Of a stretch of DNA of 47,553 nucleotides, positions 10,769 to 12,823 are shown piece by piece (the first letter of the stretch is position 1; each line of letters starts with the position of its first letter). The stretch lies in the IMG/VR virus record IMGVR_UViG_2734482568_000006. The stretch is one strand, 5' to 3'. Both the position numbers and the translations under genes were made by a program. The notes below the pieces were generated by a model. The model did no database searches and was not told the DNA's origin. It saw only the letters and a list, made by a program, of their open reading frames with translations. Origin of the DNA: a virus (lineage: Duplodnaviria; Heunggongvirae; Uroviricota; Caudoviricetes).

Positions 10769-12823
10769 TTACGCGTTATTCACTTCCACCACGATACTGT
10801 CAATCAGTACCGGGTAAGTCGCATTTTTAGTGATATCGGTCACGCGCAACTTGTCTGCCGTAAACGTGCCGACCGGAGACTGCGACAGCATGAATGGTGT
10901 CCCGTCCTTACCATCAATGACCGGCGTCACCTCAATACTGTTGTTACCGGCAAAACGGAAGCCCAGCGTATGCCATTCGTTATTAAATGCGCCGAATGAC
11001 CCCAGCTTCGTGTTCTGCGCCGTGTTTCCTTTGTGATACATCACGTTAAGGTCTGTGGCATCGCTCTGTACGTAGAACGATGCCAGCAGGTTATGACCGG
11101 CATTTCCTTCCAGAGTAACCCCTTGCGGCAGGGCAGAAACCGGCCAGTACAGCGCCAGTGCGTACTGATTAGCCGTAAGCGCGCCATCGAGTTTAAAACG
11201 ACAACTGACAAGACCACCTTTACCCAGCAGGTCCGCACCATTACCAGCATCATGCTCAAGGTACCAGGGGGCTCTTCCTGTTTCCTTGGTCAGTTTCATT
11301 GCCTTACCCCCGCTGGCTCCGGCATCATCCACGATTTGAGCCTTGCCACCTCCGGCAGCCCAACCCTGTGGTGTCAACCGTCCTTCAGACTCAGATGCCC
11401 GGTAAGCAAATAGCGTACTCATCGTCGTGGTGTCTGCGGGTGGCGTGGACGGTTTTGATGGTGTATCAGGTGACGGCTTCTCATCCGGTGGTGTCACGGT
11501 CTGCCCACGCATCAGTTCAGCCGTGCGCCCTGCATGGAGCATAATAGCTGAGGCCAGACGGTCTGAAATGACGCCCCTGCGTGCCCATGAGCTGAAATGG
11601 CTGTCACGCTGTGTCGAAACAAAACTGCCCTGGGTTCGGGATGCTGCACCGTAATACCCGACAGCCACAATATCCGGGTCTTCCGCCGGAGCATTCGTTG
11701 GCGTGCTCTGTCCATTCTCATCCGTCAGGAACGGTACAAAGAAAATTTTCTGTGCTTCCTTGCCTTTGTAGCCACCGTATACTGCCTCATATTTATCGGT
11801 GCCAGCGTTTTTCCAGTAATACGTGGTATCACCGCAAATCCACGGCACCGTGGTGGCATTTCCACTCACGCACTGCGCAGCAAGCGGAGCCAGGTCAGTT
11901 CTGAACTGCTGAACCATGGCCGTGAATAAACTATTATGCTGCTGGCTTCCTGAGGCAAGGTCTGCCTCTCCCTGCATCCAGACCACAGCCAGAAGTTTGT
12001 TTTTCGGGTTTTTCGCCAGCGCGACTTTGGTGCGGCTTACCAGGTCCTGATACAGAGGTTTACCGGCCCCCCAGCGTGAAGAATCAGCGGAAGCACCGCT
12101 GGCCTCACTGAATGAGCCGTCGGCTCCAGTGGTGAATGCTGACCCGCCACGACAACAGGGCACCAGAAGTATCCCGGCATTCTGTGGGATATAGGGAAGC
12201 AGTTTTTTGGCAATATGCAACCCCTGACCGACAGTCCCGTACTGGCCTTTTGCCAGATCAGCTTTCGGGTGGTTTATCCCGCTCATATCCTGAACATCAT
12301 GCAGGCAGTGGTCTGCCGGAATGATGTCGTTGTATGTACACGACGTACCGTTGGGCGTTACCGTACTGCGGCGTGCCAGTTGCTTAATGCGTGGGTCCGG
12401 GCGGTCAAACGAATCCGGTAACGGCAGCCCCTCGCCGTAGGCCATGCCATTTGACTGACCCGCGAGAATGACAACAAAGTAATATTCCGGCTCTGAACTG
12501 CTGCCATTCGTGCTACCGGAAGGCCCGGCGTTATCCGGTGCATTCCAGTCGGAGGGCGTGAGCGTTCCGGCCACGTCAGATGTGATTGGAATGATGCCAG
12601 TCACGCCTGAACTGGTGATTTCTGCACTGGGATTACCGGATACCGGCATTACCCATAATGGCTCTTTCGTGCTGAAGCGGATCACGCAGTCTGCGAAGGT
12701 GATCCCCCCTTTATTACCCGAAGGGCGGAAAGGGCTTTCAATAAATGCCACCGTGCCACCGGCAACCTTGACTGAAAACTCTCCGGGCATGGCGGAGAGC
12801 ATTTTCCACTTGGAGTCTGACAT
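10769..12823 (-). CDS. SASA/SGNH-family carbohydrate O-acetylesterase (NanS-p-like or tailspike-like), 684 aa
   Basis: YYFVVILAGQSNGMAYGEG matches the GQSN motif of sialate O-acetylesterase (SASA) domains; about 120-aa N-terminal extension and a C-terminal beta-rich domain; no signal peptide. Sits between gin and com where Mu has no gene. Confidence 0.7.
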   Translation of the reverse strand: MSDSKWKMLSAMPGEFSVKVAGGTVAFIESPFRPSGNKGGITFADCVIRFSTKEPLWVMPVSGNPSAEITSSGVTGIIPITSDVAGTLTPSDWNAPDNAGPSGSTNGSSSEPEYYFVVILAGQSNGMAYGEGLPLPDSFDRPDPRIKQLARRSTVTPNGTSCTYNDIIPADHCLHDVQDMSGINHPKADLAKGQYGTVGQGLHIAKKLLPYIPQNAGILLVPCCRGGSAFTTGADGSFSEASGASADSSRWGAGKPLYQDLVSRTKVALAKNPKNKLLAVVWMQGEADLASGSQQHNSLFTAMVQQFRTDLAPLAAQCVSGNATTVPWICGDTTYYWKNAGTDKYEAVYGGYKGKEAQKIFFVPFLTDENGQSTPTNAPAEDPDIVAVGYYGAASRTQGSFVSTQRDSHFSSWARRGVISDRLASAIMLHAGRTAELMRGQTVTPPDEKPSPDTPSKPSTPPADTTTMSTLFAYRASESEGRLTPQGWAAGGGKAQIVDDAGASGGKAMKLTKETGRAPWYLEHDAGNGADLLGKGGLVSCRFKLDGALTANQYALALYWPVSALPQGVTLEGNAGHNLLASFYVQSDATDLNVMYHKGNTAQNTKLGSFGAFNNEWHTLGFRFAGNNSIEVTPVIDGKDGTPFMLSQSPVGTFTADKLRVTDITKNATYPVLIDSIVVEVNNA

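Follow-up and report, generated by a model that had tools for sequence, protein, structure and literature searches.

Described phage-borne NanS-p sialate O-acetylesterases have a DUF1737 domain at the N-terminus, and the question raised here is what takes its place when the same enzyme is carried by a Mu-like phage, and what the replacement does. The gene in question, a nanS-p-like gene at positions 10769-12823, lies on the minus strand of a 47,553-nucleotide (nt) stretch of DNA (IMG/VR record IMGVR_UViG_2734482568_000006; the whole stretch is referred to as the window), which is an Escherichia coli Mu-like prophage with its flanks. The encoded protein has an esterase domain and a C-terminal lectin-like domain of the NanS-p type, preceded by a domain unrelated to DUF1737. 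The explanation that best fits the data, and that we consider probable, is a NanS-p-type esterase which is the first gene of a cassette and appears to form its own late transcription unit in a Mu-like prophage.

Identity and domain organization of the esterase

The open reading frame (ORF) proposed in a sequence-only reading of the window is real. It starts with ATG, encodes 684 residues and ends with a stop codon at 10769-10771, and RefSeq annotates an identical coding sequence (CDS) in E. coli HH35 (WP_001284083.1). In several E. coli chromosomes the RefSeq label is 'DUF6645 domain-containing protein', and 'sialate O-acetylesterase' is also an existing database label for this protein. The GQSN motif on which the SASA-family call was based is present at residues 122-125, within ILAGQSNGMAYGEG (residues 119-132), and the call is borne out by a Pfam match to PF03629 at residues 117-312 (E = 1.5e-13, 51 bits, cutoff 24.8). 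The N-terminal extension, taken to be 120 residues long, measures about 113, with homology to NanS beginning at residue ~110-114. The β-rich C-terminal domain corresponds to DUF6645 (PF20350, residues 533-650, E = 7e-68 in Pfam). By inspection, the N-terminus MSDSKWKMLSAMPGEFSVKVAGG contains no hydrophobic core, in agreement with the reported absence of a signal peptide. In PHROG the protein matches phrog_143, a family of function unknown, from residue 71 onwards (E = 2e-296).

Comparison with NanS and NanS-p, which the sequence-only reading had recommended, gives strong matches to both. When searched against sequences with solved structures, the protein matches E. coli NanS/YjhS, a 9-O-acetyl-N-acetylneuraminic acid esterase, over residues 110-428 (PDB entry 3PT5, E = 1.8e-117; the chain numbering of 3PT5 is offset by 11). 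Over residues 469-683 it matches the NanS-p C-terminal domain of phage phi24B, which has been crystallised (PDB entry 6YP6, E = 7e-98). NanS is an SGNH type II hydrolase with a Ser19-His301 dyad, Gln18 in the oxyanion hole and no catalytic Asp (PMC9063846); the absence of a Ser/His/Asp arrangement, suggested earlier as grounds for rejecting the enzyme, is therefore inapplicable. Ser19, Gln18 and His301 of NanS align with Ser124, Gln123 and His409 here, and all three are conserved. The block around His409 reads RDSH, compared with RSSH or RASH around the catalytic His in NanS and in the alleles of Shiga toxin (Stx) phages (PMC10462455). The aromatic residues proposed to bind sugar in the C-terminal domain of vb_24B_21 (the phi24B protein), Y510, Y515, Y540 and F611 (PMC10462455), are conserved as Y554, Y559, Y584 and F654. 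The esterase domain is 70% identical to that of 933W L0105 and the C-terminal domain 68.5% identical. All NanS-p alleles tested experimentally, including the 933W L0105 product, are reported to be active esterases on 5-N-acetyl-9-O-acetylneuraminic acid (Neu5,9Ac2) (PMC8065619).

Because of the matches to 3PT5 and 6YP6, the conserved residues and the 70% identity to a characterised NanS-p, the identity of the protein as a NanS-p-type sialate 9-O-acetylesterase is secure by homology. The SGNH type II domain, with Ser124 as nucleophile, His409 as base and Gln123 in the oxyanion hole, would de-O-acetylate Neu5,9Ac2 and acetylated mucin sialoglycans; this substrate range is deduced from the 70-90% identity to active alleles. 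The lectin-like jelly-roll domain at the C-terminus presumably directs the enzyme to glycans.

An unrelated N-terminal domain in the position of DUF1737

The described architecture of NanS-p consists of DUF1737, SASA and the C-terminal domain (PMC10462455). Pfam confirms DUF1737 (PF08410) in 933W L0105 and in the homologue from a P2-like phage, while the window protein gives no Pfam match to it at E ≤ 1. The sequence-only reading noticed the extension and overlooked that it is not the usual domain of the family. Remote homology between the two was rejected (hhalign probability 0.4%), and the new domain is predicted to be all-β, compared with a helix plus three strands in DUF1737 (10.64898/2026.04.10.717836). 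Residues 1-~95 match no Pfam or PHROG family. An AlphaFold2 model from a six-sequence alignment shows all-β structure with predicted local distance difference test (pLDDT) values of 71-88 over residues 1-80 and low values in linker 1. Among its fold matches, all of them weak, are PA14 carbohydrate-binding domains and the cupin dimerisation domains of Mif2p and CENP-C. An origin as a paralogue of another prophage protein was also rejected; the domain has no homology to any window protein, tail proteins included.

The domain was found only in Mu-like prophages. Phmmer, run exhaustively against 1.84 billion representative proteins, returned only fragments of the same protein and one 30%-identical Salmonella enterica protein, which is the start of a GQSN esterase located downstream of gin in a distantly related Mu-like prophage. 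A word-indexed search with the N-terminal domain alone returned only fragments, and a scan over one genome per species gave no match. IMG/VR contains the domain in 34 loci, in two allele groups (97-100% and ~61% identical), and all 34 are in Mu-like contexts. Loci that reach upstream carry baseplate J, gp48, tail-fibre and tail-fibre assembly genes and usually gin, and those that reach downstream continue with DUF1378, DUF826, com and mom. In addition, a Mu-like phage (Mu_JNE082796) inserted into the Stx2c phage JNE082796 carries the ~61% allele. Among complete E. coli genomes, 32 of 5426 (~0.6%), mostly from isolates other than Shiga toxin-producing E. coli, contain DNA of the domain, in up to three places per genome. 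The multiple copies are consistent with replicative transposition or repeated lysogeny. The gene is frameshifted or truncated in a few loci; the esterase is split in one (L022) and the C-terminal domain shortened in another (L008).

Between the two allele groups, nonsynonymous (pN) and synonymous (pS) divergence are 0.22 and 0.78 in the N-terminal domain and 0.19 and 0.73 in the esterase domain, and the linkers evolve faster (pN 0.39-0.45). The N-terminal domain is under purifying selection; its pN/pS is near that of the esterase domain, and it is therefore a constrained, functional domain.

Boundary of the module swap

In a full-length search, the clusters covering 98-100% of the query (678-691 residues) lack PF08410. 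The next best matches are DUF1737-type proteins of 647-650 residues, 87-91% identical over residues ~111-684. One such relative (P0035) is encoded in a lambdoid prophage (L044) in the order RusA, Q, ..., NanS-p, DUF1378, DUF826, holin, lysozyme and Rz1. In blastn, the window and this prophage share 2007 nt at 87.7% identity, extending from window position 12491, which falls at codon ~111 within linker 1, to 10490 in the DUF1378 gene, and no similarity to the lambdoid prophage is detected upstream of 12491. The alignment points to a clean and recent swap with its boundary exactly at the linker before the esterase domain. Free recombination of the esterase and lectin parts therefore takes place between Mu-type and lambdoid genes, and in the data examined the N-terminal module stays with the phage type. 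A common esterase-lectin body is thus combined with differing N-terminal modules, DUF1737 in lambdoid and P2-like phages and the ~95-residue all-β domain in Mu-like phages.

A possible virion anchor or a soluble enzyme

According to a 2026 preprint, the NanS-p of phi24B (gp84) decorates the capsid. The hexamer formed by its DUF1737 is reported to plug the central hexons in the T=9 shell, and the protein is full-length in fresh virions, with the esterase and lectin parts cleaved off later (10.64898/2026.04.10.717836). The distinction drawn in the sequence-only reading between a virion-attached protein and an enzyme released at lysis is out of date, since this NanS-p decorates the capsid and is later cleaved off. 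The NanS-p half of that either/or is supported by 3PT5, 6YP6 and the conserved residues, while no support was found for a tail-attached, depolymerase-like receptor-modifying protein. DUF1737 is the capsid anchor in phi24B, and thus the domain replaced in the Mu-like version is exactly the anchor.

From its position and its phage-type specificity, the new domain could anchor the esterase to the Mu-like virion; this would be the simplest interpretation, and its chances come close to even. The broader proposal, put forward tentatively, is that the domain is a hitherto unrecognised virion anchor specific to Mu-like phages and that NanS-p is a modular mucin esterase displayed on virions. Its catalytic-lectin body would be exchanged among phage families, each of which supplies its own anchor, DUF1737 for lambdoid and P2-like capsids and the new domain for Mu-like particles. 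Several observations weigh against an anchoring role. Two phages with 90%-identical capsid proteins share 63% identity in this domain. Simple linkage to the non-homologous gin flank could account for its restriction to Mu-like phages. DUF1737 is retained in P2-like myoviruses, so the module is not set by morphology alone. Finally, the fold search with the domain matched no known decoration or tail protein.

At the junction of linker 1 with the esterase domain, the sequence is SSSEPEYYF here and SSSPSWYY in the allele of Mu_JNE082796. SSP-containing linker motifs are proposed as autoprocessing sites in phi24B (10.64898/2026.04.10.717836), and the resemblance of linker 1 to these motifs seems weak.

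A competing explanation is identical in every step except anchoring. It holds that the enzyme is soluble and never enters the virion, that the N-terminal domain oligomerises or binds glycans, and that lysis of a sub-population feeds de-acetylated sialic acid to the surviving lysogens. It has a substantial chance of being correct, somewhat short of even. The fold matches, weak as they are, agree with it, small cupin barrels often being dimerisation domains, and the N-terminal domain diverges faster than the capsid protein. A soluble enzyme is also in keeping with the missing signal peptide, the apparent late expression alongside the endolysin and the growth advantage on Neu5,9Ac2 attributed to NanS-p (PMC8065619, PMC10462455). 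Less easily accommodated are the location of the domain in the exact place of the capsid-binding DUF1737 of other NanS-p proteins and the sharp swap boundary on an otherwise ~90%-identical body. A generic oligomerisation or glycan-binding module would, moreover, have no cause for phage-type specificity.

A repeated 22-nt element and probable late expression

Comparison of the region upstream of nanS-p with other intergenic regions of the prophage identified a 22-nt element. Its pattern, CTTTYYTGAWNTYCCGCAAAWC, occurs three times in the window at ≤3 mismatches, compared with 0.01 expected from shuffles, and all three copies are on the late-gene strand (Table 1). The other two copies are at the positions of Mu Plys (37040-37061) and Mu PI (28853-28874). 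The only Mor/C-family gene of the window (37053-37475) encodes a protein 39.7% identical to Mu C and 27.8% identical to Mor. Each copy is followed after 20-21 nt by TATTCT, TACGCT or TATGCT (a TAYKCT hexamer), and there is no good -35. In Mu, late promoters contain a -10 but no -35, and C binds a dyad whose centre is at -43.5 (PMC2582627). Under the assumed -10, the element spans -54 to -33 with its centre at -43.5, the transcription start and the -10 assignment being guesses.

In the second Mu-like phage, Mu_JNE082796, the same three places are the sole matches at ≤5 mismatches (L041 positions 28683, 20756 and 4778). Its gin-nanS-p spacer is otherwise unalignable and keeps the element with TATGAT at 20 nt. 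The element is conserved in all window-type loci checked and is kept upstream of the gene in loci without gin. It resembles a late-promoter signature for this Mu-like phage group, and nanS-p is likely to head its own late, activator-dependent transcription unit and to be produced alongside lysis and head proteins. In agreement with this, nanS-p of Stx phages is expressed late and upon induction (PMC10462455, PMC8065619). The Mu C-like activator would probably drive nanS-p through the element common to the endolysin and head-protease genes. Synthesis of the enzyme would then coincide with that of virions and lysis proteins, and its release would presumably occur at lysis.

Some points count against this assignment. 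The motif was defined post hoc from the sites themselves, and the start and -10 positions were guessed, as stated above. No fourth copy was found at the tail-operon promoter in the window, and upstream of com/mom there is a weak version, TAAATTTTCGCTAATG, followed after 20 nt by TATCAA. Direct comparison with Mu Plys reveals a common ATAATCCCGCA-like core, but the register of the CCGCA core relative to the -10 differs in Mu's own Plys, so homology with the binding sites of Mu C is not claimed. A scan of 8400-13700 for consensus sigma-70 promoters and terminators gave matches no more than shuffles did, and the promoter assignment therefore rests on the repeated element.

Late control also bears on the possibility of lysogenic conversion, in which read-through from a constitutively transcribed gin would express nanS-p in the prophage state and yield a cytoplasmic esterase without induction. 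The two genes are on the same strand with 85 nt between them, and the scan of 8400-13700 showed no strong canonical terminator. However, a hairpin with a T-run overlaps the gin stop codon; it is present in both the minimum free energy and the centroid folds, and its 10-nt loop explains why the terminator scan missed it. The upstream element is retained in loci that lack gin and is common to lysis and head promoters, and nanS-p of Stx phages is induced with late genes (PMC10462455). The probable late unit argues against expression in the lysogen by this route, which we consider unlikely.

Just past the nanS-p stop, at 10714-10752 (minus strand), there is a 9-bp GC-rich stem, GCCGCCGGT...ACCGGCGGC. 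Its A-run is on the sense strand and its T-run on the opposite strand, so that it would terminate oncoming transcription and not that of nanS-p.

Prophage context and neighbouring genes

The 5.1 kb around the gene are 100% identical to prophages in about a dozen complete genomes. HH35 and JKHS016 carry an identical copy of the cassette region. In HH35, the Mu-type genes for head, tail, baseplate and tail fibres precede the invertible segment, the recombinase and the esterase; next come DUF1378, DUF826 and a hypothetical gene, then com, and a mom-like gene ends the prophage. Phage Mu has a bare spacer of 95 bp between the end of gin and com, with no gene in it; the ~3.4 kb at 9480-12908 are therefore accessory DNA inserted at the right end. 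The order nanS-p, DUF1378, DUF826 is also found directly upstream of the holin gene in 933W and in the lambdoid prophage L044, and thus the three genes travel as a cassette.

The neighbourhood of the invertible tail-fibre segment, which the sequence-only reading pointed out, is confirmed by gin and the inverted repeats (Table 1). A spike-like esterase attached to the tail or baseplate, stripping O-acetyl groups from K1 polysialic acid or O-antigen and altering host range, would suit this neighbourhood, the SASA domains of actinophage tail proteins (29% identity to a minor tail protein of an Arthrobacter phage; phrog_25867 'tail protein', E = 1e-6) and the possible role of NanS-p in phage adsorption raised in a review (PMC8065619), but it is very improbable: Pfam, PHROG and fold searches gave no match to tail-fibre or tail-spike adaptors or to β-helix folds, the N-terminal domain has no homologue among the window proteins, gin separates the gene from the tail operon, the gene has its own promoter-like element and keeps it where gin is missing, and the same esterase-lectin body sits on the capsid, not the tail, in lambdoid podoviruses.

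The invertible segment holds a single tail-fibre assembly gene (13972-14493, plus strand), whereas Mu has two chaperone genes, U and U'. An alternative fibre C-terminus is located at about 13546-13920 (plus strand) and the expressed fibre gene at 14525-15406 (minus strand). In the current orientation the assembly gene and the alternative C-terminus face away from the expressed fibre gene, which is therefore without a co-oriented chaperone. The assembly gene is found in either orientation among the IMG/VR loci, so the switch is active.

The prophage extends from about 8423 to 47037 and is inserted inside an IS66 element, the halves of which (transposase C-terminus on one side, TnpB on the other) are at 7866-8324 and 47035-47358, both on the minus strand. 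In HH35 the prophage interrupts a diguanylate cyclase gene, and such differing insertion sites are as expected for a transposing phage. Repeated TTTGATAC / GTATCAAA motifs are present at both prophage ends. In the left flank there are fragments of a plasmid-type replicase/primase and of a Tn3 transposase, together with a haem-uptake cluster of ChaN, TonB and TonB-dependent-receptor genes; the window may derive from a plasmid or a genomic island.

Between DUF826 and com, a 97-residue orphan ORF lies on the opposite strand (9691-9984, plus strand) in a stretch of low GC content (0.42). It has no Pfam, NCBIfam or PHROG match. Some related loci have it, and others lack it or have a different sequence there, which makes this a variable spot. 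In Mu_JNE082796 a 350-residue ORF replaces mom after com (L002 12420-13472) and carries GGTPCQAFS, a motif typical of C5 cytosine DNA methyltransferases; judged by this motif only, it would be a different DNA-modification gene in the mom slot. ARAGORN found no tRNA in the window. RefSeq annotates a 'tRNA-OTHER' in the identical prophage (L001 40006-40085, corresponding to about 29505-29584 of the window), between the virion morphogenesis and minor head protein genes.

Table 1. Positions of the esterase gene, its domains, the associated sequence elements and the neighbouring genes in the window
Feature	Position	Strand	Evidence or remark
nanS-p-like gene	10769..12823	-	ORF, Pfam SASA and DUF6645, PHROG_143, 3PT5, 6YP6, RefSeq CDS
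N-terminal domain, residues 1-~95	12539..12823	-	All-β; no Pfam/PHROG family; in DUF1737 position
Linker 1, residues 96-113, Ser/Gly/Pro-rich (…GPSGSTNGSSSEPE)	12485..12538	-	Low pLDDT; pN 0.45
SGNH type II (SASA/NanS) esterase domain, residues 114-430	11534..12484	-	3PT5 alignment
Ser124 codon	12452-12454	-	3PT5 alignment
His409 codon	11597-11599	-	3PT5 alignment
Linker 2, residues 431-468, Pro/Ser/Thr-rich	11420..11533	-	Alignments; pN 0.39
C-terminal lectin-like jelly-roll domain (DUF6645), residues 469-684	10772..11419	-	6YP6, Pfam
22-nt element CTTTTTTGAATTTCCGCAAAAC	12885..12906	-	62 nt before nanS-p ATG; candidate late-activator binding site
-10-like hexamer TATTCT	12859..12864	-	20 nt downstream of element; -35 position AACACA, poor match
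Second copy of element	37040..37061	-	Between Mu C-like activator gene (37053-37475) and endolysin gene (36481-36981)
Third copy of element	28853..28874	-	Upstream of Mu I head-protease gene (27686-28819)
Hairpin CGTCAC-N10-GTGACG, then CTTTTTT	12907..12928	-	Overlaps gin stop codon; weak terminator candidate
gin-type serine DNA invertase	12909..13481	-	Pfam Resolvase and HTH_7; upstream neighbour
Inverted repeats of invertible segment (13552-14884)	13552-13637 / 14799-14884 and 13651-13700 / 14736-14785		
DUF1378 small membrane protein gene, cassette gene 2	10442..10636	-	PF07125, E = 1e-31
DUF826 gene, cassette gene 3	10152..10406	-	PF05696, E = 6e-16
com and mom	8543..9479	-	Pfam Zn_ribbon_Com, Mom; downstream boundary of inserted region

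Comparison with known systems

The closest described counterparts are the lambdoid NanS-p proteins, such as 933W L0105 / EDL933 z1466 and phi24B vb_24B_21 (= gp84). Identity in the esterase domain ranges from 70% (933W) up to ~90% (other lambdoid alleles), and both types share the DUF6645 domain with its aromatic site, the lack of a signal peptide, the adjacent DUF1378 and DUF826 genes and, apparently, late-gene expression. They differ at the N-terminus, where the lambdoid proteins have DUF1737 and the window protein the ~95-residue all-β domain, and in the carrier, which here is a Mu-like transposable myovirus. In lambdoid phages the gene is located between stx (or Q) and the holin gene and is transcribed from a pR'/Q-dependent promoter, whereas here it is located between gin and com/mom, with a candidate promoter that resembles a Mu late promoter.

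Chromosomal NanS (YjhS), of the sialic-acid regulon, has in common with the window protein the SGNH type II fold family, the Ser-His dyad and the Gln oxyanion residue. The crystallised NanS is a single esterase domain of ~330 residues that lacks both the N-terminal and the lectin domain, and it is not phage-borne, whereas the window protein has three domains and lies in a prophage. P2-like (Peduoviridae) prophages, for example vB_EcoM-569R5, offer another case of a NanS-p homologue borne by a myovirus, in the late region after the lysis genes; unlike the window protein, it keeps DUF1737. The right end of phage Mu (gin - com - mom) has the same flanking genes in the same order, with 95 bp between gin and com in place of about 3.4 kb holding the cassette and one orphan ORF. 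Mu late promoters depend on a C-family activator (PMC2582627), and a single Mu C-like gene is present here.

All defining features of NanS-p testable here were found except the N-terminal DUF1737, and the protein is filed as a NanS-p variant, not as a standard member. A partial search of the literature returned no description of NanS-p in Mu-like phages, of an alternative N-terminal domain or of DUF6645. As an enzyme the protein is unremarkable; what is new is the module swap, together with the candidate late-promoter element.

Implications

To our knowledge, almost all discussion of NanS-p has treated it as an accessory gene of Stx and other lambdoid prophages that aids growth of enterohaemorrhagic E. 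coli on mucin sialic acids. Here its esterase-lectin body is found in a transposable Mu-like phage. The 22-nt element provides a testable handle on late-gene control in this Mu-like group and shows how an imported accessory gene may have come under the late control of a phage. The swap at the just-reported capsid anchor amounts to a natural experiment on the role of the N-terminal module. If the Mu-type domain does not bind virions, the DUF1737 result may not generalise. If it does, display of the esterase on the particle would be a selected trait; such display would then be convergent and selected in gut coliphages, and not a peculiarity of Stx phages.

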